Source: Canicola haemoglobinophilus
GTDB taxonomy: Bacteria; Pseudomonadota; Gammaproteobacteria; Enterobacterales; Pasteurellaceae
NCBI RefSeq assembly: GCF_002015075.1
Contig: NZ_MUXZ01000051.1
Coordinates: 1-32,000 of the forward strand
Direction of reading: 5' to 3'
DNA: 32,000 nt
The translations under genes and the position numbers were made by a program. Positions 4,750-32,000 of the stretch are shown here, piece by piece. The first letter of the stretch is position 1; each line of letters begins with the position of its first letter. The notes beneath the pieces are model-generated. The model was given only the letters and a program-made list of their open reading frames with translations. It ran no database searches and was not told where the DNA came from.

Positions 4750-7374
4750 ATGAAAACAACAGCAGAAATTAGACAGGCTTTTTTGGATTTTTTCCACAGC
4801 AAAGGGCATCAAGTTGTAGATAGTAGTTCTTTGGTACCAGAAAATGATCCAACTTTACTTTTTACTAATGCAGGTATGAATCAATTTAAGGATGTTTTTC
4901 TTGGTTTAGATAAACGTTCTTATTCAAGAGCAACCACAGCGCAGCGCTGTGTGCGTGCTGGTGGTAAACATAATGATTTAGAAAATGTTGGTTATACCGC
5001 TCGTCATCATACTTTCTTTGAAATGCTTGGAAATTTTAGTTTTGGCGATTATTTCAAACAAGATGCAATTAAATTTGGTTGGGAGTTTTTAACTTCACCA
5101 CAGTGGCTTGGTTTACCAAAAGAAAAATTATATGTCACCGTGTATGAAACTGATGATGAAGCTTATGATATTTGGCATAAGGAAGTTGGTGTGCCAGAAA
5201 ATCATATTATCCGCATAGGCGATAATAAAGGGGCTCCTTATGCTTCTGATAACTTCTGGGCAATGGGGGACACTGGTCCTTGCGGTCCTTGTACAGAGAT
5301 TTTTTATGATCATGGTGATCATATTTGGGGCGGTTTACCAGGCCGCGCAGAAGAAGATGGCGACCGTTATATTGAAGTTTGGAATATCGTATTCATGCAA
5401 TTCAACCGCCTTGCTGATGGCACAATGGAAAAATTACCAAAACCATCGGTTGACACTGGTATGGGATTAGAGCGCATTAGTGCAGTAATGCAGCATGTCA
5501 ATTCAAACTATGACATTGATATTTTCCAAAAATTAATTGCGAAGGTTGCTGAACTTACAGGCGAAAAAGATTTAACAAATAAATCATTACGCGTGATTGC
5601 TGACCATATTCGCTCTTGTGCTTATTTGATTGCAGATGGTGTTATTCCTTCTAATGAAGGTCGTGGCTATGTTCTACGTCGTATCATCCGCCGTGCAGTT
5701 CGTCATGGTCATTTATTAGGTGCTAAAGGTGCTTTTTTCTATAAATTAGTGCCAACATTAATTGATGTAATGGCGGCAGCTGGTAAGGATGTTAAAGAGA
5801 AACAGGCTAATGTTGAAAAATTATTACGTTTAGAAGAAGAGCAATTTGCTCGTACTTTAGAGCGTGGTTTAGCTTTATTAGATGATGCGTTAGCGAATGT
5901 AAAAGATGGCGTGTTATCTGGCGAAGTTGCCTTCAAATTATATGATACTTATGGTTTCCCATTAGATCTTACTGCGGATGTTTGTCGTGAACGTGATATT
6001 CGCATTGATGAAGAAGGCTTCGATCGTGAAATGGAAGCACAACGTTTACGTGCGCAATCTGCAAGTCAATTTGGCGTAGATTACAATAATGTCATTCGTG
6101 TAGATGGAACTACTACTTTTGAAGGTTATACCGAAGCAGAATCTTTAGCAAAAGTGACCGCACTTTTCTATGAGGGTAAATCTGTTGAGAGCATTAGTGC
6201 TGGGCAAAGTGCGGTTGTTATTTTGGAAAATACACCATTTTATGCGGAGTCTGGTGGCCAAATCGGTGACAGCGGTCGTTTAAGTGCTGCGAACATGTTG
6301 TTTGATGTAAAAGATACACAAAAATATGGGCAAGTTTTTGGACATATTGGTGAATTAATTCAAGGAACATTAAGCGTTGGCCAAACTATTAATGCGGTTG
6401 TTGATGTAGAGCGCCGTACACAAACTTCATTAAATCACAGTGCAACTCATTTATTGCATGCTGCTTTACGTCAAGTTCTGGGAACTCATGTGGCGCAAAA
6501 AGGTTCACTGGTATCAGACACAGCGCTACGTTTTGACTTTGTTCAGCCTGAAGCAATTAGCCAAGCGCAATTATTTGAAGTTGAGCGTATTGTCAACCAA
6601 CATATTCGTGCGAATCACCCTGTTGTTACTGAAGTTATGCCGATTGATGAAGCAAAAGCGAAGGGCGCAATGGCGTTATTTGGCGAGAAATATGGTGATG
6701 TTGTTCGTGTTGTGACTATGAGTGAGTTTTCTGTGGAGCTTTGCGGTGGTATTCACGTGAAACGTACTGGCGAAATTGGGTTATTCAAGATTATTTCTGA
6801 ATCTGCTATTGCTGCTGGCGTTCGTCGTGTTGAAGCTGTAACTGGTAATGCTGCAATTCATTGGTTGCAACAACAGCAAGAACTATTGATGCAAAGTGCG
6901 GATTTATTGAAATCTGATACAAATTCATTAGTAGAAAAAATTCAGCAATTGCAAGACAAAGCGAAGAAAGCGGAGAAAGAACTACAAGCATTAAAAGAAA
7001 AATCTGCAATGCAAGCTGGGTCTGATCTTGCTAAAAGTGCGGTAAAAATTAATGGTATTTCTGTTATTGTTCAGCAACTTGAGGGGATGGATGCAAAATC
7101 CTTACGAGTTGTGGTTGATGATTTGAAAAACCAATTAGGATCCGCTGTAATTGCTTTTGTAACTAAGAGTGAAGATAAAGTTAATTTAATTGTCGGCGTC
7201 ACTGCTGATTTAACTGCTAAAGTTAAAGCTGGCGAGTTGGTTAACTTAATGGCACAACAAGTTGGAGGTAAAGGCGGTGGTCGTCCTGATATGGCAATGG
7301 CAGGTGGATCACAACCAGAAAATATCTCTAATGCGTTAACGATTTGTAACGAATGGTTACAGAACAATTTGTAA
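4750..7374 (+). CDS. alaS: Alanine--tRNA ligase
   Basis: Class II AlaRS motifs ([23 protein letters not shown]), editing-domain [11 protein letters not shown] and CGGIHV, and a C-terminal GGGRPDMA segment. I moved the start to ATG 4750 ([15 protein letters not shown]) rather than the ORF-track 4693. Confidence 0.97.
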
Positions 7375-7539
7375 AATAAAATTTTTGTGTTATAGCTCAC
7401 ATTTTTGAATATTATTCATCTATTTGTGAGAATAAATAACGTAGAATGTGAGCTAGATAACACTTTATTATTTAAACTAAAAATAAGGATTTTAAGAAAG
7501 ATAGGGATGTTATAAATTCAAATGAAATGAGAGAGTTGT

Positions 7540-7722
7540 ATGCTAATATTAACCAGAAAAGTGGGCGAGAGCTTACTCATTGGCGATGATATTTCTATCA
7601 CGATATTAAATATACGTGGCAATCAAGTAAAAATTGGTGTTGATGCACCGAAAGATGTTTCTGTTCATAGAGAGGAAATTTACCAGCGCATTAAAGATGC
7701 ACAGGATGAACAGCCGTCTTAA
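7540..7722 (+). CDS. csrA: Carbon storage regulator CsrA
   Basis: 60 aa, [48 protein letters not shown]. This is the canonical CsrA sequence, and the gene lies downstream of alaS as in E. coli. Confidence 0.97.
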
Positions 7723-7755
7723 TGGCTTTTGTAATTGGTAAGATATGGAGAAATT

Positions 7756-9120
7756 ATGAGTAAATTGACTTGTTTCAAAGCGTACGATATTCGTGGTCGT
7801 TTAGGCGATGAATTAAATGTGGATATTGTATATCGTATTGGTCGTGCTTTCGGACAATTTTTAAAGCCCAAAACGATTGTTGTCGGTGGAGATGTTCGTT
7901 TAACCAGTAAAGAATTAAAAAGTGCGGTAACTAATGGACTTTTAGATTCAGGGGTGAATGTCATTGATTTGGGCGAAGTTGGCACAGAAGAAGTCTATTT
8001 TGCTACTTCATTCTTAAAAGCTGATGGTGGTATTGAAGTAACTGCAAGTCATAATCCTATGGATTACAATGGATTAAAACTTGTACGTGAAGGCTCCCGC
8101 CCTATTAGCGCTGATACAGGTTTAGCTGATATTCAACGTCTTGCGGAAGAAAATAATTTTGCTCCAGTAACACAACGAGGAGAATATAAACAGCTTTCAG
8201 TATTAGGCGACTATGTTGAACATCTCTTATCTTATATCAATTTAGAAAATCTAAAACCAATGAAATTGGTAATTAATTCAGGTAATGGTGCTGCTGGTCA
8301 TGTTATTGATGCGATTGAAGCTCAATTCCGTGCAAAACGTGTACCTGTTGAATTTGTAAAAGTCCATAATAATCCAGATGGTACTTTCCCAAATGGAATT
8401 CCTAACCCAATCCTACATGAAAATCGTCAAGATACTATTGATGCTGTGCTTGAGCATAAAGCTGATATGGGTATTGCTTTCGATGGTGATTTTGACCGTT
8501 GTTTCTTGTTTGATGAAAATGGTGGTTTTATTGAAGGTTACTATATCGTTGGTCTATTAGGACAAGCATTCTTACAGAAAAATAAAGGTGCTAAGATCAT
8601 TTATGATCCACGTTTAATTTGGAACACGATTAAATTAGTGGAAGAAAATGGCGGTGAAGCTGTGATGTCTAAATCTGGACATTCTTTCATTAAGGAAAAA
8701 ATGCGTGCCGTTGATGCTATTTATGGCGGCGAAATGAGTGCTCATCACTATTTCCGCGATTTCTTCTATTGTGATAGTGGAATGATTCCTTGGCTGCTTG
8801 TTATGGAATTAGTGTCTAGCACAGGTAAGTCATTAGGCGAATTAGTTGGTAATAGCCTTGAAACTTATCCATCTCCAGGTGAAATTAATAGTAAACTAGT
8901 GGATGCGAAATCTGCTATTGCTCGTGTTCGTGCTGCTTATGAAAAAGACTCTATCAGCGTGGATGAAACTGATGGTATCAGTATTGAATATCCAAATTGG
9001 CGTTTCAATTTACGTAGTTCAAATACAGAACCTGTTGTTCGCTTAAATTTAGAAACGCGTGGTGATAAGCAATTAATGACAGAAAAAACAGAAGAAATTC
9101 TATCTTTATTACGCCAATAA
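7756..9120 (+). CDS. manB: Phosphomannomutase/phosphoglucomutase (CpsG/ManB type)
   Basis: Phosphoserine loop [11 protein letters not shown], Mg loop [16 protein letters not shown]. As I remember it, the sequence is collinear with E. coli CpsG from [14 protein letters not shown]. Start set at ATG 7756 with GGAG 6 nt upstream. Confidence 0.9.
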
Positions 9121-20877: not shown

Positions 20878-20914
20878 AAAGATTGTTTTCAGTAAGAAAA
20901 CAATCTTTTTTGTT
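20878..20914 (+). terminator. Rho-independent terminator of gor
   Basis: A 13-bp stem, aaagattgttttc (20878-20890) / gaaaacaatcttt (20896-20908), with a following T-run. The last exact USS of the window (20848-20856) lies just upstream. Confidence 0.75.
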
Positions 20915-20955
20915 TGAATTTCAAAACTTGTCTAATGATGTTAGCTTTGAAAAGG

Positions 20956-20985
20956 AAAGGCTGTTTCCTGATGAAAACAGCCTTT
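20956..20985. terminator. Second hairpin in the junction region, with T-runs on both strands
   Basis: An 11-bp stem, aaaggctgttt (20956-20966) / aaacagccttt (20975-20985), flanked by T-rich runs on both strands. It could end minus-strand transcription leaving the island or belong to a disrupted host locus. Confidence 0.4.
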
Positions 20986-21223
20986 TGCTATAAGTGTTAT
21001 TCCCACTCGATATGTCCATTGATATTATTTTGTATAAATGGCATAAAATCAATGTTTTTGTTATCAGCTTTAGCCTTATTATCCGTTTTATTTCTGTTTA
21101 TCCGTTTTTTTGCAAGCATATTGCAAGCACAAGCATATTAACTTTTATAAAACTTACTTTTTATGTTTTAATACATAAATATTTTGTATATAACTTAACT
21201 CTAATAAATCAGCTATCTTATGA

Positions 21224-22396
21224 TTATAAATAATCAATTGTGTTCATAAAATTAAGTATTAATTCTGTAGTATTTATATGATTTTCATTTAATATTTCGA
21301 CAATATCTCTACCAGAAATAATAATTACAGGATGACCATCTTCCAACAATTCTTTATACGCTTGTTCAGAAACATACGATGTCGTAACAAAAATGCCAAA
21401 ATCTCGATATTTTAATCTAGATACTAGTCTGGATAATAATTTTACACCATTAGAATTGTCTCTTTGATAACACTTTGCTTCCAATGCACATCGTAACTTT
21501 ATAGAATTATTTTTATGTCCTAATTTATATTCACCTATAGCATCTATCCCTCCATCTCTCACCGCCCTTGTAATATTGAAATTCAAAAAATGATTATCCA
21601 TTAATCCAACTAACTTAGCCGCAAAAAACTCGAATTTATAAGGCTCATTTTTATAGTATTGATATATGATCTCTAATCTTTTTAACTCTTCATCTGTTGA
21701 CGGAAGTTGTTCAATCTTTGTTCTATATTCTTTTGTTTTCGGTGCTCTTAAAATAATATCTTCTGTTAATCCTTCCTTAACATACTTAATCCAAGCTTTA
21801 GGAGCATATTCCTTATTTAAATAATCTCCATCTACTAAACAATTAAGCCATTCTTTACTTATAGATTTGGTGTTTAAAATTGTAAAATGAGCTTCATAAT
21901 TTATAAATCGCTCTCCATTAGAAGTCCTCCAAATAGCTTTGAGAGAATTATCTCTGCCAAGATGATAGTCTTCTGGAACAGCTAAACCTAAAAATTTAAC
22001 ACTTCTATTACTAGTTATAGTAGGTTTTTTCATAAAGATAAAAATTGGTGGAATTTTGTTACGATCTTTTTCATTAAATATATTCTCTAATATTAAATTA
22101 CCCTTTTTAGAATCAACCTTATATCCAGGACTTTTATTATCACCATAATATTTAAATTTACCCATTTCCTGTTCTAATGTGTCCGGCCAATCTATATCTT
22201 CATTGGATGTATATAAAACTATATAAGCTTTATCTTTTGAGTTTAATACATTTTTAAATCTAAAACCTCCAGAATTTTGTACATTCATTAACTTAGTTAA
22301 TACCTCATCTGATATATTACCGTTATTCCCACCTTCATAAACTTCATCTATAACTAAATCTACTCCTGATTTACATATTTCTTCAAATAAAACCAT
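21224..22396 (-). CDS. Mrr-type PD-(D/E)xK restriction endonuclease with an SRA/PUA-like N-terminal domain
   Basis: The C-terminal ~130 aa has the Mrr_cat pattern (RDGGIDAIGEY...LRCALEAKCY...GVKLLSRLVSRL...FGIFVTTSYVSEQAY). The N-terminal part (GGFRF...AYIVLYTSNEDIDWPD...GKFKYYGDNK...KKGNLILENIF) resembles the SRA-type signature (hhLsGgyeDD.D.G..f.YtGsGG...GN.aL). SD AGGGAGA. Confidence 0.7.
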   Translation of the reverse strand: MVLFEEICKSGVDLVIDEVYEGGNNGNISDEVLTKLMNVQNSGGFRFKNVLNSKDKAYIVLYTSNEDIDWPDTLEQEMGKFKYYGDNKSPGYKVDSKKGNLILENIFNEKDRNKIPPIFIFMKKPTITSNRSVKFLGLAVPEDYHLGRDNSLKAIWRTSNGERFINYEAHFTILNTKSISKEWLNCLVDGDYLNKEYAPKAWIKYVKEGLTEDIILRAPKTKEYRTKIEQLPSTDEELKRLEIIYQYYKNEPYKFEFFAAKLVGLMDNHFLNFNITRAVRDGGIDAIGEYKLGHKNNSIKLRCALEAKCYQRDNSNGVKLLSRLVSRLKYRDFGIFVTTSYVSEQAYKELLEDGHPVIIISGRDIVEILNENHINTTELILNFMNTIDYL

Positions 22397-22418
22397 CTAT
22401 TCTCCCTTAACATTATAT

Positions 22419-23684
22419 TTAATAATCGAACTCATCCATATTATCCTTTTTTAAAAATTCCAACATTGCTGATGCTATTTTAAGAGATAATATAGGAGGA
22501 ACTGCATTACCTATTTGCTTAAATGCGGCTGTTCGTGAATGTTCAAAATAAAAATCATCTGGAAATCCTTGTATTCTTGCTGCTTCTCGCACTGTAATAG
22601 AACGATTTTGTCTTAAATCTGGATGGATATAATAATGTCCATCCTTTGATATATGGGCGACAATCGTATGACTTATGGAATCATAATCTAATGCTTTATA
22701 TCTGTCTAAAAAAGAAGTTATATTAGAATGTGTTTGAAGATCTATTGGTATATCAGTATATTTTAAATTACACCCTTTTTTTCTAGCTTTTAATACTAAC
22801 TTATATATCTTCAAGTCATTCTCATTATGAGGTCTTGCAATATGCTGAGTCAAAATATCTTCTTTGTTACGAATATATTTTTCAACAAAACTACTTGAAC
22901 ATTCACAACGATATTTATTAGCATCTTTTCCTGCTTTTATACTTGGTAGATCGTTAAATAACTCTTTTAATTTCGGAGCATTCTCTACATACTCATACAA
23001 GTAGTCAAAGAAAGACTTTTTTAACACCAAATCTTTTCTATAACCTACAAGGATTAGCCTCTCCCTCTTTTGCGACACCCCAAAATCACTAGCATCCACT
23101 ATTTTATAGTTGACCACATATCCAAGTTCATTAAACTCTCCAATTATTTTAGGTAGCAATAAGTCACCAGATAAATCCTTAAATGAGAGCAATCCTTTAA
23201 CATTCTCAAATACAAAGAATTTAGGATTATATCTATCTAAAAAATCTAAATAATGTTTATATAAGTAAATTCTTTTATCTGTTGACTTCTTAGCCTTATT
23301 GTTTGCTCTACCAATAGTAGAATACGCCTGACAAGGTGGTCCGCCTATGATTCCATCTAATTCTTTATCCCCCAATCGTTCGTCTATATATTCAAATATT
23401 GAGGGTATAGTGTCTTTGCTGATTTCTTCATTTAAAATATTCTTAGTCACATCACTCGGTACTAAGGAGCATAAATCATCTCTTGAAATATCGCCTTGTA
23501 AATACTCAAAATAAGGAGAGAGGTTATTTTCATTTTTTAAATAATAGTATACATTTCTTAACTCTAGTGAAGAGCAGGCATCTTTGTCCATCTCAACATG
23601 ACAAATAAAATCATAATAATCCTTATATCTAAAGCCTTCGGTTAATCCGCCAGCTCCTGAAAATAAATCCAGAATATTTAACAT
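22419..23684 (-). CDS. DNA (cytosine-5)-methyltransferase, second copy, specificity unknown
   Basis: Motif I DLFSGAGG, IV GGPPCQAYS, VI ENV, VIII QKRER, then [13 protein letters not shown] and X GNAVPP. Start set at ATG 23684, preceded by GGGAGGTG. The ORF-track TTG is at 23702. Confidence 0.93.
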   Translation of the reverse strand: MLNILDLFSGAGGLTEGFRYKDYYDFICHVEMDKDACSSLELRNVYYYLKNENNLSPYFEYLQGDISRDDLCSLVPSDVTKNILNEEISKDTIPSIFEYIDERLGDKELDGIIGGPPCQAYSTIGRANNKAKKSTDKRIYLYKHYLDFLDRYNPKFFVFENVKGLLSFKDLSGDLLLPKIIGEFNELGYVVNYKIVDASDFGVSQKRERLILVGYRKDLVLKKSFFDYLYEYVENAPKLKELFNDLPSIKAGKDANKYRCECSSSFVEKYIRNKEDILTQHIARPHNENDLKIYKLVLKARKKGCNLKYTDIPIDLQTHSNITSFLDRYKALDYDSISHTIVAHISKDGHYYIHPDLRQNRSITVREAARIQGFPDDFYFEHSRTAAFKQIGNAVPPILSLKIASAMLEFLKKDNMDEFDY

Positions 23685-23708
23685 AACCGCACCTCCCTTC
23701 AATTTATA

Positions 23709-25634
23709 TTATTTTTCTGTAGTCTCACTGGGATTATAAATACTCTCTATTTCTTGATACTTCGCAATATAATCTTTATTATACTGCTTTGCCTGTTGCA
23801 ATAAGTCTGAATACGACTTAATACACAACTTATTTGTATCTTCCAAAGATGAATAGAAGTCTTTTGTTTCTTCATCCATCTCAAAACTATCTGATATTAA
23901 GAATGTTTTCACACCATTAGCAATGCTTTCTTTATGATTTTTTAACAAAAATCTTTCGTACTCCCTAGCCTGTCTGATTTCTTTTAGTGAAATTTTGATT
24001 CTCGGTCTCTTCAATTCAATTATTATTAATTCACCATTTACTAAATTGCAAAGAAAATCTAATCTCCTATTTCTCTCTTCTAATTCATTATCAGGAAAAT
24101 TTTCTTTTAGTATTCTCTTAAATGTTAATTCTCTTTCAAATGTAGTTATTCTTGGATCTAATATCCAAGGGAATTTTTCTAAAAACGGTTGAATAACCTT
24201 TGTTTCACTAGCATCATTTTTTACATATCTTTCAAATTGCTCAATTGCCTTAATACGCCCTATTGATATTTTAGCCAATTCTTTTGATTCTATATATTCC
24301 CAATCTGCAGTTATTTTTTCAACTTTATCGACAGTCAAATCTTCATCATCTAACTCAGCTATATAGTTTTGAAAACTTTCAAATTTATACAGAGTCTTCA
24401 TGCTATCTAATATTCTTTTTAAAGATTCAATATTGTCTGTCTCTATGGAATTGGCAAGCATGGTATCTTTCACCTTATTTATGCTAGATATTTCAAGTTT
24501 AGTCATCCCTTCGTAAAAATCTTCAGGAAGCTGCAACTGTTCCTCTTTTTTCTTTTTTCTACTATTCCTCCACATAGCAGATACTTTTGAAACTAATTTA
24601 TTCAAATCATGTTTTAGTTGAACGGTATTATCATTTTCTTCCCACAAAATAGATTGCCTAGCTGTCGATATATAATCTGCTTCATCCGAATCATCTATAA
24701 AATCAATATTAAAAAATCCTGTCACATAACTATTAAACCTATCATTGGCTCTATCATCAAAGAATACATTTTCTGAAGCCAATTTGCTTCTGACATATAG
24801 TAAAAATCCACTATCTTTTTTTCTTAATGGTGTTGATTTAGTATAAATCTTTCCAGTAACTAAATTTTCATTCAATCTCCTAAACTCTTCAATACTATCA
24901 AGTTCATCAACAAAATCTTCTGGAAATGACCATTCAAATTCCTTGTCCAATCTGTCAAAATAGATGGATTTAGAAATTGGTTGCTCATTTGACGAGTTTT
25001 CATCAATAATTTTAACTTCAAAATCAGAATCGTAAAATGAAAATCGTCTAGACAAGTTATACGCTAGATCATCAATACTCATTATGCTTTTTTGCTTAAT
25101 TTCTTTAATATTGACAACTGTTCCAGATTTTTCGTTTGTATGCTCATTTTCACAAATACTATTAGGTCTATATTCTGTATCAGTTTCAGCTTTCATATCA
25201 TCATAATTTATACTGAATGCATTTTTCACTCCATCCTTAATAGAAGTAACTTCTATAGTATTTGCAATTCCAAATACTGCTAATTTGCCTAATCCTTTTT
25301 TTCCTGTTACTTTTCTATTTTTCCCTTTTGATAGACCTGTCCCTTCCGCTTTTCTTCTATTTCTGCCAATCACCAAAAAATTTTGATTCAATTCATCATG
25401 AGTCATACCCGTTCCGTTATCAATTACAGTAACTATTTTTTTGTCATAATTGATTCTTATTTCAACATTTTCAGCATCCGCATCATAAGAGTTTGAGATC
25501 AATTCTGCGATAACAGGAGGAAATGTACTATACAATTTAATTCCTAAGTGGTCTATTGTGTTCCTATCAAATTTTATGCTAAATCCATTATTTTCCATAA
25601 ATATACTATCTGATAAAGCTATCAGATCCTCCAT
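23709..25634 (-). CDS. GHKL (MORC/paraMORC-like) ATPase fused to a C-terminal Shedu/DUF4263-like PD-(D/E)xK nuclease
   Basis: Bergerat-fold motifs: N box ELISNSYDA, G1 DNGTGM, G2 GKKGLGKLAVFG. The C-terminus has VIQPFLEKFPWILDP...RRLDFLC...GELIIIELKRP...QAREY, that is a D...ExK nuclease core. Start is ambiguous among ATG 25634 (2 nt after the upstream stop), ATG 25646 and TTG 25652. Confidence 0.8.
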   Translation of the reverse strand: MEDLIALSDSIFMENNGFSIKFDRNTIDHLGIKLYSTFPPVIAELISNSYDADAENVEIRINYDKKIVTVIDNGTGMTHDELNQNFLVIGRNRRKAEGTGLSKGKNRKVTGKKGLGKLAVFGIANTIEVTSIKDGVKNAFSINYDDMKAETDTEYRPNSICENEHTNEKSGTVVNIKEIKQKSIMSIDDLAYNLSRRFSFYDSDFEVKIIDENSSNEQPISKSIYFDRLDKEFEWSFPEDFVDELDSIEEFRRLNENLVTGKIYTKSTPLRKKDSGFLLYVRSKLASENVFFDDRANDRFNSYVTGFFNIDFIDDSDEADYISTARQSILWEENDNTVQLKHDLNKLVSKVSAMWRNSRKKKKEEQLQLPEDFYEGMTKLEISSINKVKDTMLANSIETDNIESLKRILDSMKTLYKFESFQNYIAELDDEDLTVDKVEKITADWEYIESKELAKISIGRIKAIEQFERYVKNDASETKVIQPFLEKFPWILDPRITTFERELTFKRILKENFPDNELEERNRRLDFLCNLVNGELIIIELKRPRIKISLKEIRQAREYERFLLKNHKESIANGVKTFLISDSFEMDEETKDFYSSLEDTNKLCIKSYSDLLQQAKQYNKDYIAKYQEIESIYNPSETTEK

Positions 25635-25636
25635 TC

Positions 25637-26593
25637 CTATTTCCATCTGCAATCTATCGAAATGATAGTTGTTGGCATACCTATTATTTGTATATCAAAC
25701 TTCAGGCTAGGTTCGACCTTTGTAGATGCATTGTGAATTCTAAAGCTGAATTGCCAACCGCCATCAAGATATAATTCCAAAGTATTTTTACTGCTTGGTT
25801 TATAATCTAAACTTACAATTCGTGTTGGAAGTGTTGATATTGGTAATTCAATGCTTCTCTTTTTCTTATTCCCTTGCTTATTTAAAGTGCCTCTTAAATT
25901 ATAACTTTGAATTTGAGTTATTCGTTTGCTATCAATTCCAATAACTTTATAAAAATCAAATTCTCCAAGTAAATACTCCACCATAAGTCTAGGAATATCT
26001 TTACCAAACAAGCAATTTTGTCTCTCTAATTCCCCTTTAAATGCATTTAACAGTGGAACATATACATCATCTTCTTTATTAGGTAAATCACTCCACTTAG
26101 AGTCCTTTTGTTTCTCAACATCAAGATATTCAAATATAGGTTTAATCTCTTCCCAATATTGTTCGGAGCAATCTACCCCATACCATTTTCTACCAAAATC
26201 TAAGTTCTTTGACAGCCTACTATGCTTAACAGCAAAATGATTATGCTTAACACTTAAACCTATTTCCCATTCAATCCCTCGTCTAATAATCAAGACATCT
26301 CTTACATCGCCTTCCTTACCTTTATCATCCGATTGAATTTTTAGTTCAAGCTCATCGTCTCCATCATCTAAAATCAAAGGTTCAAGGTCAAATATAGTGT
26401 TGACTCCTGCCAAGGCACTAACTTTATATATTGTCTTTTCAGAGTCAGTTAAAGTATTCCATGCTCTTTCTGCTGCAAAGTAACTACTGTTTTCTTCTAT
26501 CTTTGCTGGTCTTGTTTTAGATATTTCTTCAAATAATGTAATTAAATAGGAGAACTCATATGCTCTTCCTTGATTATTACTTTTATTGCTCAT
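25637..26593 (-). CDS. Type II restriction endonuclease, HaeIII-like (probable GGCC)
   Basis: It lies immediately downstream of the M.HaeIII-like gene (13-nt gap, SD GGAGGT). The N-terminus MSNKSNNQGRAYEF and the core GDVRDVLII...IGLSVKHNH.AVKHSRLS fit my recollection of the HaeIII REase family and a D...(S/E)xK nuclease core. Not verifiable here. Confidence 0.7.
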   Translation of the reverse strand: MSNKSNNQGRAYEFSYLITLFEEISKTRPAKIEENSSYFAAERAWNTLTDSEKTIYKVSALAGVNTIFDLEPLILDDGDDELELKIQSDDKGKEGDVRDVLIIRRGIEWEIGLSVKHNHFAVKHSRLSKNLDFGRKWYGVDCSEQYWEEIKPIFEYLDVEKQKDSKWSDLPNKEDDVYVPLLNAFKGELERQNCLFGKDIPRLMVEYLLGEFDFYKVIGIDSKRITQIQSYNLRGTLNKQGNKKKRSIELPISTLPTRIVSLDYKPSSKNTLELYLDGGWQFSFRIHNASTKVEPSLKFDIQIIGMPTTIISIDCRWK

Positions 26594-26606
26594 GACTAAC
26601 CTCCAA

Positions 26607-27629
26607 TTAATTATCTGTACCAGTTTTTAATAGATTACTATTTACACTTGAATTATCTAAAGCAGATGAAATTGCTTTAGCCATTTCAAATGCAAGATTT
26701 ACTGGCACAGCATTACCAATCATTTTATAGGCATCATTTAAATTCGTATAATAGAATTTAAAATCATCTGGAAACCCTTGTATTCTTGCACACTCTCTCA
26801 CTGTTAATCTTCTGTATAGTGCTTCCTTACCAGGTTCGAATATATTTTTATTTTTTTCTACTTTAGGCATCACTGGTGCTTGTGGATGTAGCTGACATTG
26901 TCTTCCTGAAGCTTGAACTGTAAATGCCTGCTCATCCCATCGTCTAACTCTATTTCTACTCATAAAAATAGGTGAGTACGCACCGACAAAGTATTCATGA
27001 TTCATAACTTTGCAATTATTACCATTAGTTTTATTTTTCTCTAATGCCGGTATTGCAGAATCTTTCAAGTCCAAAATAGCATCTTTAAAAGTTAATTTGT
27101 TTTTATATGGTTTGGGTGGTTCAAATTTAACCTTCAAATCTTTCCTAAATCCTACATAAAAAACTCTTTTTCTATCTTGTGGAACACCATAGTCACTTGC
27201 ATTTAACAAGTGAATAAAGACATCATAACCAGCTTCTTCAAATTGAGAAACTATATTCTCAACGGCATCATTATGTCGTCTTGCCATCATCCCCTTAACA
27301 TTTTCGGCAAGGAAAAACTTAGGGTTTTTATCCTTCAAAATACGTATATACTGATAAAATAATTGCCCTCGCGGGTCATTGATCCCCTTTAAAGAACCTG
27401 CTTCACTCCATGATTGACATGGCGGTCCTCCTATAATTCCATCACAGTCAGGGAACATATCTGAAGGAATTCTACAAATATCTCCTTTTATAAGTTTAGT
27501 TTTATGATTTTTTTCATATGTTTCCCATATCGTTTTATCATATTCGTTTGCCGCAACCACATTAAATCCAGCTCTTTCAAAACCTAAATCTAATCCACCA
27601 GCTCCCGAAAACAAGCTAACTAAATTCAT
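26607..27629 (-). CDS. DNA (cytosine-5)-methyltransferase, M.HaeIII-like (probable GGCC)
   Basis: All ten C5-MTase motifs are present ([54 protein letters not shown]). The variable region [18 protein letters not shown] and long collinear stretches match the M.HaeIII sequence as I remember it. SD GGAGGT. Confidence 0.92.
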
Positions 27630-27630
27630 C

Positions 27631-27852
27631 TTATATTACCTCCGAAGAATCATTAACACATTCTACAATCTCTGAAATATCACATTCCAATACATTACAT
27701 ATTCTAAGTAATACATCAGTGGTTACATTTTCACCATTTTTTATCTTGTAAAATGTACTTCTACTCACTTTAGCTTTATCCATAAGCTCTGTATTCTTCA
27801 TTTCTATATCTATCAATCTTTTGAATAATTTTTTATAGCTAAGTTTTGACAT
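27631..27852 (-). CDS. Small Cro/C1 (XRE)-type HTH regulator, possible RM controller protein
   Basis: 73 aa with [33 protein letters not shown]. The stop is 1 nt from the MTase start. SD GGAGGA. First gene of the operon. Confidence 0.75.
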
Positions 27853-27895
27853 GATTATCCTCCAGTCCTATCCGTCTTAATATCATATCATTTCT

Positions 27896-27904
27896 ATTAT
27901 ACCA
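27896..27904 (-). promoter_or_regulatory. Candidate extended -10 promoter of the defence operon
   Basis: The minus strand reads TGGTATAAT (TGn plus a perfect TATAAT) about 44 nt upstream of the HTH ATG. No convincing -35. Confidence 0.4.
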
Positions 27905-28001
27905 TATAAATCAAACTTATAACAGTATTATATTCCGTTTTCTCAAACACAATGACACAAAGACTAATCGGTGCAGTCCTAAAACCACACCGACCATAAA
28001 A

Positions 28002-29462
28002 TTATCTTTCAGCTTCTTTCGATATTTTATTCTTTTCTTTAGAAATTTCTCTTTCTTCACTCCGATGTTTCTTAATTGCACCAATAACTGATTCCTTTTT
28101 CTTTTCAGTTTTATTCCTACCTAGATACTCATTCATATTAACTTTAAGATGTTCCAATCCCTTATGCTGTGCTGCTAATGAATTATGTTTCTTGATTATC
28201 TCCTCTTGTTTAGCTTGTATTTCTTTAGAATACTCATTTAATTTCTTGAAAAGATTTTTACTTGATTTTGTCTTTAACTCTCCTACTACAACATGTCTCA
28301 AGTGCGGGAATTGCTTAAGAAAAATATCTATTTCCTCATAAGACTTCTGATAGGCTTCTACATCTTTTCGATTCATCATCATATAAATTTTATCGTTCGG
28401 ATTTTTGTGATAACCCTCATAATGCTCTCTTTTACTTATACATATTTGAATATGTTTTACTACTTCCTTTATCCTTTTTTGCTCCAATAACAGCTTATCA
28501 AATTCTCGCTTCAAGTCCTTCTTTGCAATGGAAATTCGGCTGATACCACGTTCTAATTCTTCCATTGAATTAAATCCTTTATTCCTGATTTCAACAAGCG
28601 TAGAAGCAGCCGTTTTAAGATTATGTTTTGTTGCCCAATTTTCATATCCTTTGCTTGACTTTGCTTTTTCGCTGTTCTTAATATCAATGATATTTCCAAG
28701 TTCTTTATCTTTATTCAGGATTCTGTTCTTAATTCGTTCTTCATTGTAGTTAGCTCCAATGGTCTTTGCTCTGGTAAATCTCTGCTGATTTTTACCTCTA
28801 AAAGCTATATGCTTTCCATATTTTATTTCATAACCGTAGCTTTCCATTTTAGATAAAAAGTCCTGCCAGTTAATTGACTGCTTTATAGTTCTATCTATAT
28901 CAAACTGAAGTTTTGACTTATAGCTGCTTCCTTTTTTATCTTCATTCCAGTCATACCAATTCACAAACTTTCTTCTCTTGATTTCATTGATTTCCTTTTG
29001 CGTTTCAACATCTATTACCGATAAATTATGTCCCTTGCAAAGTCTATCGCTTTGATTTCTGATGTTCATATAAGAACCATAGTAGGAATGGTAAACTTTG
29101 CCCTCATCAACATCAATGGAATTAAAAATGATATGATTATGAATATGGTCTTTGTCGATATGCGTTGCTAAGACATATTCATATTTTCCCTCTAAAATCT
29201 TTTCGCAGAGTTCGATTCCCACTTGATGAGCTTCTTCAAAACTGACTTCTTCCGGCACAAAGGATTGAATTAAATGATGAGCTAAAGTTTTGGTTCTTGA
29301 GTTAAACTGTTTCTTGGTAAGCTCAAATTCTTTGTGAGTATTTTCTCTGCTACAAAGATATGTGGTAACATAGATTTCATCATCGGTTTTATCTCCGTTA
29401 CAGATGTAATCTATCGCCTTTTTAAGCGTTGTTTTAATCGGATGTATCTTCGTAACAGCCAT
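28002..29462 (-). CDS. Relaxase/mobilisation nuclease (MOBP-like, Relaxase PF03432 type)
   Basis: N-terminal MAVTKIHPIK..., HLIQSF, a three-His motif HIDKDHIHNHIIFNS (compare RP4 TraI HxDxDxxHxH), and a long K/E-rich coiled-coil C-terminus. The start overlaps the MobC stop. Confidence 0.9.
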   Translation of the reverse strand: MAVTKIHPIKTTLKKAIDYICNGDKTDDEIYVTTYLCSRENTHKEFELTKKQFNSRTKTLAHHLIQSFVPEEVSFEEAHQVGIELCEKILEGKYEYVLATHIDKDHIHNHIIFNSIDVDEGKVYHSYYGSYMNIRNQSDRLCKGHNLSVIDVETQKEINEIKRRKFVNWYDWNEDKKGSSYKSKLQFDIDRTIKQSINWQDFLSKMESYGYEIKYGKHIAFRGKNQQRFTRAKTIGANYNEERIKNRILNKDKELGNIIDIKNSEKAKSSKGYENWATKHNLKTAASTLVEIRNKGFNSMEELERGISRISIAKKDLKREFDKLLLEQKRIKEVVKHIQICISKREHYEGYHKNPNDKIYMMMNRKDVEAYQKSYEEIDIFLKQFPHLRHVVVGELKTKSSKNLFKKLNEYSKEIQAKQEEIIKKHNSLAAQHKGLEHLKVNMNEYLGRNKTEKKKESVIGAIKKHRSEEREISKEKNKISKEAER

Positions 29463-29842
29463 TATCCTACAACCTCATTGATAATATAGTCGGAAATTTT
29501 TTCTCTAAATTCTGATAAGAAAAGAAGTTCACCTTGCAAAGCTTTTTTGATGCTTTCAATATCATCTTTGTAAATAATCCCTGAGCTGTTTACCGCTTTT
29601 GCTATATGATTTAAGTTCGCCGAATTACGACTGATAAGGGTAGAAAGCTCTCTCAGTTCTTTTCGAAACTCACCGGATAAATCAATACTAATGATTCTAT
29701 TTTTAAAAATACTGTCTCGGTAAAACTCTCTCTTGCTCTTAAAATTGGTCAATGCAAATCTTCGGTTAAGCTCATTTATATCTTCTTCATTCACCATAAA
29801 GTGAACGGTACAATTATTTTTACGATTAACTGTCTTTGACAT
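29462..29842 (-). CDS. MobC-family relaxosome accessory protein
   Basis: 126 aa with NLNHIAKAVNSSG, the MobC-type N(L/I)NQIA motif. It lies directly upstream of, and overlaps, the relaxase gene. SD AAGGAGAG. Confidence 0.8.
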   Translation of the reverse strand: MSKTVNRKNNCTVHFMVNEEDINELNRRFALTNFKSKREFYRDSIFKNRIISIDLSGEFRKELRELSTLISRNSANLNHIAKAVNSSGIIYKDDIESIKKALQGELLFLSEFREKISDYIINEVVG

Positions 29843-29956
29843 TTTTCATCTCTCCTTTCTTTTTCGGGGTCTTAGGGTTCCTATCTACCTATAATTCATG
29901 ATTTTTATAAATCCATCTTTAACTTGCACAGAAAAAATGGATGTAGATTCTTCAAT

Positions 29957-30033
29957 TACCGTTTGCACCGTTCATACCGCACGACATTCCCTTACACATG
30001 AAACATCAAACGGTACGAACGGTTTGAACGGCA
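29957..30033. repeat. Two converging arrays of 9-bp ACCGTT-core repeats (candidate oriT or iteron region)
   Basis: Left array: taccgtttg / caccgttca / taccgcacg (29957-29983). Right array: caaacggta / cgaacggtt / tgaacggca (30007-30033). 29957-29965 is the exact reverse complement of 30007-30015. The spacer is 23 bp. The repeats sit in the intergenic region upstream of mobC-relaxase. Confidence 0.5.
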
Positions 30034-30035
30034 TT

Positions 30036-30998
30036 TTAATAAATCACATCCTCTGAATTATATTTAACTTGATAGTTATTGTTGTTTTTCCCTCGCTTCA
30101 TGGAAATGCTTATTCCATTTTTCCTGAGAATATCTTTATTACGATTTAATGTCTTTCCAAACTGCTGAGGGCTTTCAATTTCTAAATTGATTTTGGAACA
30201 AATATCTACGATTGTTCCCTCTATTTCTTTTAATCTCGGCATTACTTGTACAAGTCTTTGAATTGACGGTTCAAGCATTTCAATCGGATCAATTTTATCA
30301 AGCTCTAATATCTTCTTTGACGGATGGATTTTAACCTGATATACCTTTGACTCAAAAAGTCTACTGGTTACATCTAAGTTAAATTCTGTATCAAATTCTG
30401 ACGCTTTATCAATAGCTATTATGGTGTCAACTGAACCGGATAATGCCTGTGAACCTATGACTTTTTCGCTTACACTTTTCACTGACGAGTCCTTTTTTGT
30501 ATGGTACATCATAATAAATGTGCATCCATACTTATCTATCAAATCGTAGTATTTTGCCATCACTTCATAGGTGTCATTGTAGTCATTAGCATTATACTTT
30601 CTGTCGTATTTGATTTTAGAAAAGGTGTCTACAATAAATACTTCATAACCTAAATCTGTATCTGCTTTAACAATTCTTTCAAAGTCATCAAAATCCACAT
30701 AACTTGTTCCCTCATAAAATTTCATAGTACTTGAACAAGGAAGCTCCAATCTTTTAATTCTTTCTTGAATTAGCCTTCCGGATAGTTCATTGCAATAGTA
30801 AACAACCTTTGTTTTATTAACTTTATTTTCAAGAAAATCAATTCCTTCGTTGATACATATACCAAGATTTAGTCCTAATGCTGTCTTACCTTTTTTAGGT
30901 GAGGCTACTATCAAAGTAATACTTTTTCTTGCAATGATGTTGTCCACAATATACTTATCAGAGGCATCAAACTCAGTATCTATCGTATATGCTTTCAA
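30036..30998 (-). CDS. RecA-fold AAA ATPase (RepA/DnaB-like, AAA_25 type) of a replication module
   Basis: Walker A ASPKKGKT and Walker B VFIVDTF. There is a 4-nt overlap (ATGA) with the upstream prim-pol gene. Confidence 0.7.
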   Translation of the reverse strand: MKAYTIDTEFDASDKYIVDNIIARKSITLIVASPKKGKTALGLNLGICINEGIDFLENKVNKTKVVYYCNELSGRLIQERIKRLELPCSSTMKFYEGTSYVDFDDFERIVKADTDLGYEVFIVDTFSKIKYDRKYNANDYNDTYEVMAKYYDLIDKYGCTFIMMYHTKKDSSVKSVSEKVIGSQALSGSVDTIIAIDKASEFDTEFNLDVTSRLFESKVYQVKIHPSKKILELDKIDPIEMLEPSIQRLVQVMPRLKEIEGTIVDICSKINLEIESPQQFGKTLNRNKDILRKNGISISMKRGKNNNNYQVKYNSEDVIY

Positions 30999-31918
30999 CG
31001 AACTACCTCCCTTGTTTTTCTATGATAGTTATAATCCCAATAATTCGTTCCGCCGACTTCCTGTGCCTTTTGAATGCTCTGGTTTAAGTATTTAATATAT
31101 GCTGCCTCAGTTCTTCTCTTACTCATATCACCCATTCGATTTAGGGCTGATTTTAAGAATATCTCAAGCATTAAATCTGCATTGCCATGTGTAAAGCTGT
31201 TTAGAATAAGAAGCAATTGAAAATCGTCTTTGCTTGAATCACCTGTGGAATATTTACCTCTAAAAAGCTCTCTGCCTTTGCGATTAGTCATATAAATTGC
31301 CTTTAAAATTCCTTCTATATCCGGAACATCACTATCTATGCTTTTATAGTATTCAATTTGCTCTTTAATCGTTTCTTTAAGGGCATACTTTTTATAGTAG
31401 ATATTTAACTTATAGTAATTATCCTGTATTTCTTTACAATCTCCTATGACATTACCCGTCATGGCAATGCACTTATTTGACTTATACATTTCAAAGCGGT
31501 CTATTTGATTATTTACATTCTTTGGAATTGACCCCTTTGCAAAGATATGCAATCCATTTTCCGATATAGATGTTTCCTTATAAGTTTCTGCAAAATCACT
31601 CACGATGTCGTTCACGTTTTCAAAATTTTCTTTTACATTGTCTAAATCAATGCAGACATAAGGATCATCTTCAGTTAAAACAAACGATAGTCCATCACAA
31701 CCACTTTTTTCTAAGCCTTCTAAAGCAGTTTCAAAATCTGTCCAGTTCTCTTTTATATTCCATTCATTTGATTCACAAGTGATTGGACTGATTGGAATTT
31801 TTACAGTTTTTATATTCCCATTTTTGTCTTTGTTATGATAAATCTTAAACCATAACCATTGTTTACATTCTTTTAACTCCTGCGGAATATTGTTAATATA
31901 TTTTCCTTTGTTTATCAT
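30995..31918 (-). CDS. Bifunctional DNA primase/polymerase (AEP prim-pol) with a PriCT-like C-terminal region
   Basis: AEP motifs: WLWFKI...KIP N-terminus, DxD (YVCIDLDN) and sGxGxH (SENGLHIFAKG). SD GGAGGT. Confidence 0.8.
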   Translation of the reverse strand: MINKGKYINNIPQELKECKQWLWFKIYHNKDKNGNIKTVKIPISPITCESNEWNIKENWTDFETALEGLEKSGCDGLSFVLTEDDPYVCIDLDNVKENFENVNDIVSDFAETYKETSISENGLHIFAKGSIPKNVNNQIDRFEMYKSNKCIAMTGNVIGDCKEIQDNYYKLNIYYKKYALKETIKEQIEYYKSIDSDVPDIEGILKAIYMTNRKGRELFRGKYSTGDSSKDDFQLLLILNSFTHGNADLMLEIFLKSALNRMGDMSKRRTEAAYIKYLNQSIQKAQEVGGTNYWDYNYHRKTREVVR

Positions 31919-31953
31919 TTTTTACCTCCATATTTTTGTTGATGATAGAAGTA

Positions 31954-31997
31954 CAACCTGATAAAATCTTTTTAAGAGTTGCAATCTTATCAGGTTG
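31954..31997. repeat. 11-bp perfect inverted repeat upstream of the prim-pol gene
   Basis: caacctgataa (31954-31964) / ttatcaggttg (31987-31997) with a 22-nt loop. It could be an operator or the terminator of a gene lying beyond the window. Confidence 0.3.
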
Positions 31998-32000
31998 CTT

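Follow-up and report, generated by a model that had tools for sequence, protein, structure and literature searches.

The 32,000-nucleotide stretch of Canicola haemoglobinophilus DNA analysed here (the window) encodes a protein in which a GHKL (Bergerat-fold) ATPase is followed by a domain modelled as a PD-(D/E)xK nuclease of the Shedu/NucS type, and we consider it probable that this protein and the C5 methylase encoded directly downstream form a type II restriction-modification pair, with the former as the endonuclease. This reading is based on the domain identities, the intact motifs, the full-length homology to the BbrUII/HgiDII restriction enzymes and the linkage to a C5 methylase.

The open reading frame at 23709-25652, described beforehand from the sequence, is real and its quoted motifs were confirmed; translation of the window places it on the minus strand, which had not been stated. 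The translation contains ELISNSYDA, DNGTGM, GKKGLGKLAVFG, VIQPFLEKFPWILDP, RRLDFLC, NGELIIIELKRP and EIRQAREYERFL. Its longest form begins at a TTG codon (25652) and has 647 amino acids, and a form starting at the ATG at 25634 has 641. The ATG is probably the true start: both the NCBI assembly and an identical copy from a metagenome use it, and it sits 2 nt past the stop codon of the upstream HaeIII-like gene. Residue numbers below refer to the 641-residue form, and adding six gives the numbering of the longer one. The protein is not the product of a chance reading frame, since it is matched by Pfam HATPase_c_3 (E 5.2e-23) and by NCBIfam NF050001, 'BbrUII/HgiDII family restriction enzyme' (E 4e-93), and 490 cluster representatives match it at E <= 1e-30. 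In the public annotation (PGAP), the protein and its close relatives are named 'ATP-binding protein' only.

Table 1. Positions in the window of the nuclease gene, its domains and the neighbouring restriction genes.
Feature	Positions	Strand	Basis
GHKL-ATPase/Shedu-type nuclease gene, putative restriction endonuclease	23709..25634 (TTG form to 25652)	-	
GHKL (Bergerat-fold) ATPase domain, aa 38-180	25095..25523	-	HATPase_c_3, motifs, Hsp90-family fold matches
Beta-rich middle domain (Hsp90-M / S5 transducer-like), aa 187-330	24645..25076	-	AF2 model, Foldseek, conservation
Helical arm, aa 335-472	24219..24632	-	DSSP of model
PD-(D/E)xK nuclease domain, Shedu/NucS type, aa 477-641	23712..24206	-	Pfam, AF2, Foldseek
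C5 cytosine DNA methyltransferase, putative cognate methylase, 427-aa ORF	22419..23702	-	DNA_methylase E 8e-60, TIGR00675
AspBHI/MspJI-family 5mC-dependent restriction enzyme, last gene of the operon	21224..22396	-	RE_AspBHI_N E 6.5e-52, Mrr_cat, PADLOC mREase_II 437 bits
HaeIII-family restriction endonuclease, directly upstream of the nuclease gene	25637..26593	-	RE_HaeIII E 3.8e-135
C5 methyltransferase paired with the HaeIII-like enzyme	26607..27629	-	DNA_methylase E 1.3e-107
Small HTH protein, head of the operon	27631..27852	-	HTH_26 E 1.9e-15

Judged by its sequence, the N-terminal GHKL ATPase is complete and not degenerate, and it is predicted to bind and hydrolyse ATP. Conservation was assessed over 55 homologues of 25-73% identity, and all four ATP-binding motifs are intact: E44, N48 and D51 of motif I (ExxxNxxD) are invariant in 55/55, and motif II (D72xGxG76, with D72, G74 and G76), motif III (K113-G114-x-G116-K117) and T172 of motif IV are invariant or at least 98% conserved. 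The ATP lid is 34 residues long, with L87, G90, R94 and R107 conserved in the homologue alignment. The GHKL domain proposed in the preliminary description is thus borne out, and the lid and motifs are not those of a degenerate domain. That description had also placed a helical linker of about 350 residues after the ATPase; the helical arm is present, but it is preceded by a beta-rich middle domain, in which K284 is near-invariant and R326 invariant. In the full-length AF2 model (pLDDT 86.9), about 430 columns align with the N and M domains of Hsp90, GRP94, HtpG and TRAP1 (Foldseek, E ~1e-15). The best fold matches of this model are Hsp90-family proteins, not MORC, and a single-sequence search of PDB sequences matches the N-terminus with the Hsp90 family only. 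The helical arm is the most variable region of the family, with a mean identity to the window protein of 0.24 versus 0.32-0.44 for the other three domains, and could be a candidate specificity or dimerisation element.

The C-terminal domain, for which the AF2 model has a pLDDT of 90.7, is by its modelled fold a PD-(D/E)xK nuclease closest to SduA (Shedu) and EndoMS/NucS, and its cleavage activity is putative. Its top Foldseek matches are SduA 8ps5 and 8ps4 (E 1.5e-5, TM 0.50-0.55), EndoMS 5gke and NucS 2vld, in agreement with the Shedu/NucS-like nuclease that had been proposed. E477, D526, E540-x-K542 and Q555 are invariant or nearly so among the 55 homologues, and these motifs I-IV match those given for B. 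cereus Shedu (bioRxiv 10.1101/2023.08.10.552793). The identity of this domain was settled only by the fold search, because sequence and profile searches gave at most weak NucS/EndoMS matches: a single-sequence search of PDB sequences returned no match for the C-terminus, and a profile of 28 C-termini returned only NucS/EndoMS at E 0.006 and 0.015, with SduA absent. Pfam SduA_C (PF14082) aligns to the window protein over profile positions 3-58 of 159 at 24.0-24.5 bits (E 3-5e-5), under its gathering score of 27 bits, and matches 21 of the 28 family C-termini at E < 0.01 (best 1e-9). NucS_C reaches 17.9-23 bits, under its gathering score of 24 bits, and the N-terminal region is GHKL and not NucS_N; NucS/EndoMS proper was therefore rejected, the likeness being in fold only. 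A resemblance to Cap4-type nucleases, also suggested beforehand, did not hold up, as Cap4 is absent from the top 50 fold matches and neither Cap4 nor SAVED is found by Pfam or PADLOC; a Cap4-type CBASS nuclease was accordingly rejected.

The closest named family is that of BbrUII/HgiDII. Residues 24-636 align with positions 1-649 of 659 of the NF050001 profile, and ten diverse family representatives also match it over their full length (222-372 bits). The score of 313 bits lies under the 550-bit equivalog cut-off, so the window protein belongs to a sister subfamily of BbrUII/HgiDII and is not an equivalog, and function and specificity are not automatically transferable. PADLOC REase_II models match the protein as well (E 3.5e-35 and 6e-32), and a PDC-S41 match is weak. 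Like the window protein, R.HgiDII and R.BbrUII combine a GHKL N-terminus with a C-terminal domain, share homology over the full length and have a partner C5 methylase next door; R.HgiDII differs in that it recognises GTCGAC, and the window protein probably recognises another sequence. R.HgiDII is a type II enzyme whose GHKL domain was recognised, with the C-terminal domain left unassigned in 2008 (Orlowski and Bujnicki, PMC2441816); by homology to the window protein, that domain would be a Shedu/NucS-type PD-(D/E)xK nuclease. On the product of M.BbrUII, two papers that cite the B. breve BbrII work contradict each other, one giving 5mC and the other m6A.

The same architecture has been described in other families. 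ParaMORC3 proteins contain a GHKL domain, an S5-like domain and a restriction-endonuclease fold with an E-D-ExK motif, and occur in restriction-modification neighbourhoods (Iyer, Abhiman and Aravind 2008, PMC2292703). The window protein shares the GHKL domain, the S5-like middle and the E477/D526/E540xK542 nuclease with them, together with a sporadic distribution, mobile DNA, cytosine methylases and Vsr; it is assigned to paraMORC3 because it has each feature listed in the family description, which in that paper is computational only. A fusion of DUF4263 to an ATPase domain was noted in 2012 (PMC3424549), and GHKL-DUF4263 proteins are classed as Shedu type 1D (Gu et al. 2023, bioRxiv 10.1101/2023.08.10.552793). 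One of these, VcSduA of Vibrio cholerae, was shown experimentally to defend against phage, and either substitution, E27A in the ATPase or K557A in the nuclease, is enough to abolish defence; the proposed model is a dimeric clamp whose nuclease is under the control of the ATPase (Adams et al. 2025, PMC12137116). By published description, VcSduA and Shedu type 1D share the three-part architecture, the catalytic glutamate of the ATPase and the ExK lysine with the window protein, but VcSduA is a single gene without a methylase, whereas the window protein is tightly paired with one. E. coli SduA and B. cereus Shedu (8ps4, 8ps5) and NucS/EndoMS (2vld, 5gke) share the fold and the motif order E...D...ExK...Q, and differ in their N-terminal SduA_N or sPC4/Whirly sensors or NucS mismatch-binding domain, with an identity of only 16-18%. 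Finally, proteins of the R.NmeAIP type (PMC2441816) have GHKL and middle domains 35-43% identical to those of the window protein and an adjacent C5 methylase in 37/42, but end in Hypoth_Ymh (PF09509) and not in a PD-(D/E)xK nuclease. The architecture has thus been described several times under several names, and the gene joins a known group. The preliminary description had presented it as an ATP-dependent Shedu variant in a methylation context; both domains stand, the novelty is not supported, and the most fitting view of the methylation context is that of an ordinary partnership of nuclease and methylase.

The nuclease gene is tightly packed, with gaps of 2 nt before and about 24 nt after it. 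The downstream methylase probably starts at the ATG at 23684, for which a ribosome-binding site is seen, and would then have 421 amino acids. In our best reading, the nuclease-methylase pair belongs to a restriction operon of six genes, carried by a mobilisable island of low GC content, and the small HTH protein encoded first in the operon may be controller-like. A tRNA integration site was not found in the window, the far end of the island lying beyond it. The 427-aa methylase also matches the DrmMII (DISARM) model of PADLOC (E 1.9e-146); a DISARM reading was rejected, as the window contains none of the other DISARM genes.

The linkage to a methylase extends across the family. Of 34 full-length homologues in species-representative genomes, 25 are encoded immediately next to a C5 methylase gene, with both gene orders and both orientations represented and across 25-73% identity. 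When two genes to each side are counted, the neighbours include 26 C5 methylases, nine Vsr and few other nucleases. In relatives of 66-100% identity, the order of nuclease then methylase is constant and the flanking genes change. The bit scores of the nuclease and of the adjacent methylase are moderately correlated over 65 loci (Spearman 0.41, p 6e-4), which supports their co-inheritance without proving it. In the proposed pair, the methylase would mark a specific host sequence and the nuclease would cut unmethylated copies in incoming DNA. ATP binding would bring the N-terminal domains together as a dimeric clamp that encircles DNA, in the manner of MutL, Hsp90, GyrB and MORC, and this would license or position the two nuclease domains for double-strand cleavage; a role for the ATPase is favoured by the loss of defence in the VcSduA mutants. 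Type II restriction enzymes by definition need no ATP, and the presence of a GHKL module in an HgiDII-type enzyme, set against the ATP-independence of this class, counts against the restriction-modification reading.

It is possible, though in our judgement unlikely, that the protein is instead a stand-alone Shedu-type defence nuclease (type 1D, VcSduA-like) that acts independently of the methylase, with the GHKL and middle domains detecting infection or foreign DNA structures and the adjacency reflecting the clustering of defence genes in islands. Its nuclease fold is closest to SduA, Gu et al. class GHKL-DUF4263 proteins as Shedu, and VcSduA, which has the same architecture, protects E. coli as a single gene, with the methylase absent, and is non-toxic (PMC12137116). 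A directly adjacent methylase is missing in 9/34 full-length homologues, three of which have one within a few genes, and two metagenome lineages share a frameshift in the partner methylase, located shortly ahead of the catalytic PCQ motif and leaving fragments of 125 and 305 aa, while the nuclease keeps all its catalytic residues. The loci without an adjacent methylase, the frameshifted methylase beside an intact nuclease and the methylase-free protection by VcSduA are also points against the restriction-modification reading. However, direct adjacency of a C5 methylase in 74% of the homologues is far beyond what island clustering would be expected to give, the pair moves as a unit between contexts, and the homology to a named restriction-enzyme family covers the full length; moreover, no Shedu model in the PADLOC scan matches the nuclease protein.

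The surroundings of the pair also bear on an improbable proposal, namely that the protein is an accessory, second-line nuclease that aids the upstream restriction module without sequence specificity, for instance by sensing the DNA ends made by the HaeIII-like enzyme. A module of this kind is found directly upstream in the window as well as in several close relatives (a HaeIII system, an Eco47II system with Vsr, or LlaJI/McrBC-like genes), and at two loci (L011 and L013) a complete methylase and restriction-enzyme pair precedes a nuclease that lacks its own methylase; Shedu enzymes such as E. coli SduA act on DNA ends, according to published accounts. Against this, the nuclease-methylase pair is found at one locus alone between housekeeping genes, with other restriction genes absent nearby, and at another it is intact and has outlasted the decay of the flanking HaeIII and AspBHI genes, and most of the distant homologues have only a methylase, with or without Vsr, as neighbours. 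Very improbable is a MutL/EndoMS-like repair of T:G mismatches arising from the deamination of 5-methylcytosine, which would explain the C5 methylase linkage and accords with the MutL-like GHKL and S5-like module (weak MutL profile matches), the EndoMS/NucS-like nuclease, the co-occurring Vsr genes and the analogy to mismatch and very-short-patch repair drawn by Iyer et al. (PMC2292703), but the protein lacks the N-terminal mismatch-binding domain of NucS, in nine loci such repair is already provided by Vsr, the patchy distribution tied to mobile elements is typical of defence genes, and the sister families are restriction enzymes and VcSduA is anti-phage.

Taken together with the restriction-modification reading, these data have a practical value for annotation, in that close homologues now labelled 'ATP-binding protein' can be read as putative restriction endonucleases paired with a C5 methylase, and such re-annotation is relevant to predicting what hinders transformation and phage infection in Pasteurellaceae, streptococci, enterococci and the gut Veillonellaceae Dialister and Veillonella. 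A small gap is also closed, as the full-length homology would place the C-terminal domain of R.HgiDII in the Shedu/NucS-type PD-(D/E)xK group. The methylase-linked subfamily offers a convenient system for testing what a GHKL clamp does in an ATP-independent enzyme class, a question that is not new. We suggest, as a speculation only, that HgiDII-type 'type II' enzymes may be methylation-gated Shedu nucleases with an ATP clamp, and that the restriction and Shedu families may form one continuum. If so, the distinction between self and non-self would come from the partner methylase in some lineages and from the GHKL/middle sensor alone in others, and the lineages with a frameshifted methylase, together with the exchange of C-terminal halves between relatives, would be snapshots of switching between these modes.

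The stretch 23709-25652 on the minus strand is a single long open reading frame of 647 aa counted from TTG, and every motif quoted in the preliminary description is present in its translation. The identical protein is called at 641 aa in public assemblies, which matches an ATG at 25634, 2 nt past the upstream gene's stop codon; NCBI assembly GCA_900450725.1 contains the window. The left two-thirds of the window hold housekeeping genes (priA, alaS, dam, aroB/aroK, competence genes, ponA and gor), whose layout, judged by gene content, resembles that of Pasteurellaceae, and past about 21 kb the GC content drops from 35-40% to 28-32%, in a region where all genes are closely packed on the minus strand and where relaxase, MobC/NikA-like and AAA_25 genes are aboard. 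No tRNA was found at the island within the window, the far island end lying outside it.

Features of the low-GC island and of the homologous loci (L-numbers, locus-internal coordinates)
Feature	Coordinates	Strand	Location
Low-GC island	21000-32000		just downstream of gor
Two hairpins	20884-20912; 20952-20990		between gor end and island operon end
AspBHI/MspJI-family 5mC-dependent endonuclease	21224-22396	-	last operon gene
Second C5 methylase (partner)	22419-23702	-	low-GC operon, after GHKL-nuclease
GHKL-nuclease	23709-25634	-	low-GC operon, between HaeIII-family endonuclease and second C5 methylase
C5 methylase + HaeIII-family endonuclease		-	low-GC operon
HTH protein		-	low-GC operon
Relaxase, MobC/NikA-like protein, AAA_25 protein		-	upstream of restriction genes
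307-aa ORF	30995-31918	-	mobility region
Block shared with CP138365.1	L092 5001-10621		S. agalactiae plasmid
GHKL-nucleases, mosaic pair	L095 6001-7884; L099 6001-7863		metagenomes
Methylases with insertion	L095 7897-9148; L099 7878-9126		metagenomes
Canonical Shedu	L095 13058-13884; L096 7580-8478		after SNF2-family helicase gene
594-aa relatives	L029-L031, about 5989-7773		Streptococcus spp.
Hypoth_Ymh relatives	e.g. L048 5983-7668; L087 5989-7599		among L041-L088

Of the two hairpins, one has a T-run after it (aaaagattgttttc...gaaaacaatctttttt) and the other TTTT (ggctgttt...aaacagcctttt); they resemble terminators placed back to back at the junction of the island. The 307-aa ORF overlaps the AAA_25 gene start by 4 nt and gave no match above noise in Pfam and NCBIfam. 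The operon, with its two C5 methylases, ends in a 5mC-dependent enzyme whose specificity has to leave both of the host's methylation patterns uncut; about half the members of the MspJI family adjoin a 5mC methylase (Zheng et al. 2010, PMC2938202). Elsewhere this gene is shrunk to a 65-aa remnant (L093) or lies as fragments beside a homologous nuclease and Vsr (L018).

The N-terminal region matches HATPase_c_3 of Pfam at residues 44-178 (E 5e-23), and in an alignment of 55 full-length homologues (25-73% identity; numbering of the 641-aa form) the GHKL motifs E44, N48, D51, D72xGxG76, K113-G114-x-G116-K117 and T172 are invariant or nearly so; the ATPase is therefore not degenerate, which bears out the Bergerat-fold assignment of the preliminary description. 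An AlphaFold2 model from the same alignment (mean pLDDT 86.9) has a beta-rich domain at residues 187-330 and long helices at 335-472, and Foldseek aligned ~430 of its columns to the N-terminal and middle domains of Hsp90, GRP94, HtpG and TRAP1 (E ~1e-15). The ~350-aa helical linker described previously is thus a GHKL-associated beta-rich middle domain together with a helical arm; both have likewise been described for GHKL-Shedu proteins (Gu et al., bioRxiv 10.1101/2023.08.10.552793). The arm is the most variable of the regions compared: its identity to the window protein averages 0.24, whereas the GHKL, middle and nuclease domains have means of 0.32-0.44. We speculate that it is a candidate specificity element.

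For a separate model of the C-terminal 200 residues (pLDDT 90.7), the top solved-structure match was E. coli SduA (8ps5 and 8ps4; E 1.5e-5 and 4e-5; TM 0.50-0.55), followed by EndoMS and NucS. The residues E477, D526, E540-x-K542 and Q555 are conserved in the 55-homologue alignment and correspond to motifs I-IV of B. cereus Shedu (Gu et al., bioRxiv 10.1101/2023.08.10.552793). Pfam SduA_C scores 24.5 bits on the window protein, slightly below the 27-bit threshold, and matches 21 of 28 family C-termini (best E 1e-9). Fold, motifs and family matches together uphold the earlier Shedu-like PD-(D/E)xK call, and one chain carries both an intact ATPase and an intact nuclease site.

The strongest functional evidence is the genomic context. 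When neighbours of 34 full-length homologues were counted, with one genome per species, a C5 methylase was the direct neighbour in 25, in either order and orientation, and within two genes either side we found 26 C5 methylases, 9 Vsr and just a few other nucleases. The nuclease-then-methylase order is constant in relatives of 66-100% identity and everything else varies, the upstream module being a HaeIII system both in the window and on the conjugative S. agalactiae plasmid, an Eco47II system with Vsr in Dialister and genes resembling LlaJI/McrBC in Enterococcus and Veillonella. One lineage has nuclease and methylase alone, with housekeeping genes on both sides; in another the pair is intact, and only decayed fragments are left of the HaeIII and AspBHI genes that flank it. 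Such is the behaviour of a nuclease-methylase restriction pair. All canonical C5 motifs (FSGAGG, GGPPCQ, ENV, QKRER, GNAVPP) can be read from the translation of the partner methylase. The block HTH / M.HaeIII / R.HaeIII / GHKL-nuclease / methylase is common to the window and plasmid CP138365.1 with 81% nucleotide identity over 5.6 kb, which suggests that the block moved recently between Bacillota and a Pasteurellaceae-like host.

We propose that host sites would be protected by the partner methylase and unmethylated incoming DNA would be cut by the nuclease; by analogy with MutL, GyrB, Hsp90 and MORC, ATP-dependent GHKL dimerisation may form a clamp by which two nuclease domains are licensed or positioned. 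The sole experimental support for the ATPase role comes from VcSduA, the GHKL-DUF4263 Shedu of Vibrio cholerae, in which E27A and K557A each abolishes defence (PMC12137116). VcSduA functions without a methylase (PMC12137116), and a Shedu-like, methylase-independent mode is a live alternative: 9 of the 34 homologues have no directly adjacent methylase (three of the nine have one within a few genes), and in two lineages from metagenomes, L095 and L099 (L099 on 80 contigs), whose nucleases are close homologues, the partner methylases share one and the same 1-nt insertion just ahead of the catalytic GGPPCQ motif, whereas the nuclease genes are intact and keep every catalytic residue. The insertion breaks the methylase into a 125-aa ORF and one of about 305 aa, and a restart ATG (MVLYGGPPCQ) could give a putative split enzyme. 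These two nucleases are mosaic, with identities of 97% (GHKL), 88% (middle), 71% (helical arm) and 63% (nuclease), which suggests that their C-terminal half was exchanged by recombination. At L095 and L096 a canonical Shedu gene (SduA_N + SduA_C) lies downstream of the GHKL-nuclease/methylase pair at a distance of ~5 kb, so both Shedu-type nucleases can coexist in one defence island.

Other relatives differ at the C-terminus. The Streptococcus proteins keep the GHKL and middle domains, at 43% identity over residues 18-403, with a different C-terminal region that has no Pfam match. Their genes face, in convergent orientation, a methylase gene whose product closely resembles the window's 427-aa methylase (about 480 bits); it seems that the effector domain was exchanged and the methylase type left unchanged. 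In many relatives of ~550 aa, Hypoth_Ymh (PF09509) replaces the nuclease; these correspond to the R.NmeAIP-type group (PMC2441816), with a C5 methylase adjacent in 37 of 42 and often a Vsr-sized gene downstream.

NCBIfam NF050001, "BbrUII/HgiDII family restriction enzyme", matches the protein end to end (E 4e-93); REBASE-derived REase_II models of PADLOC match it too. The NF050001 score of 313 bits, and those of ten diverse family representatives (222-372 bits, end to end), lie below the equivalog cut-off of 550, and by this measure it therefore belongs to a sister subfamily. The domain calls of the preliminary description stand and its interpretation is supported in part, since the architecture has been described repeatedly: as paraMORC3 (GHKL, S5 and a domain of restriction-endonuclease fold with E-D-ExK, found in restriction-modification contexts; PMC2292703), as R.HgiDII (GHKL with a C-terminal domain then unassigned; PMC2441816), as Shedu type 1D (GHKL and middle domains; Gu et al., bioRxiv 10.1101/2023.08.10.552793, who counted 602 Shedu genes that lie within restriction-modification loci) and as VcSduA (PMC12137116). 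Our small addition is that, on the basis of full-length homology, the HgiDII family's C-terminal domain is assigned as a predicted Shedu/NucS-type PD-(D/E)xK nuclease.
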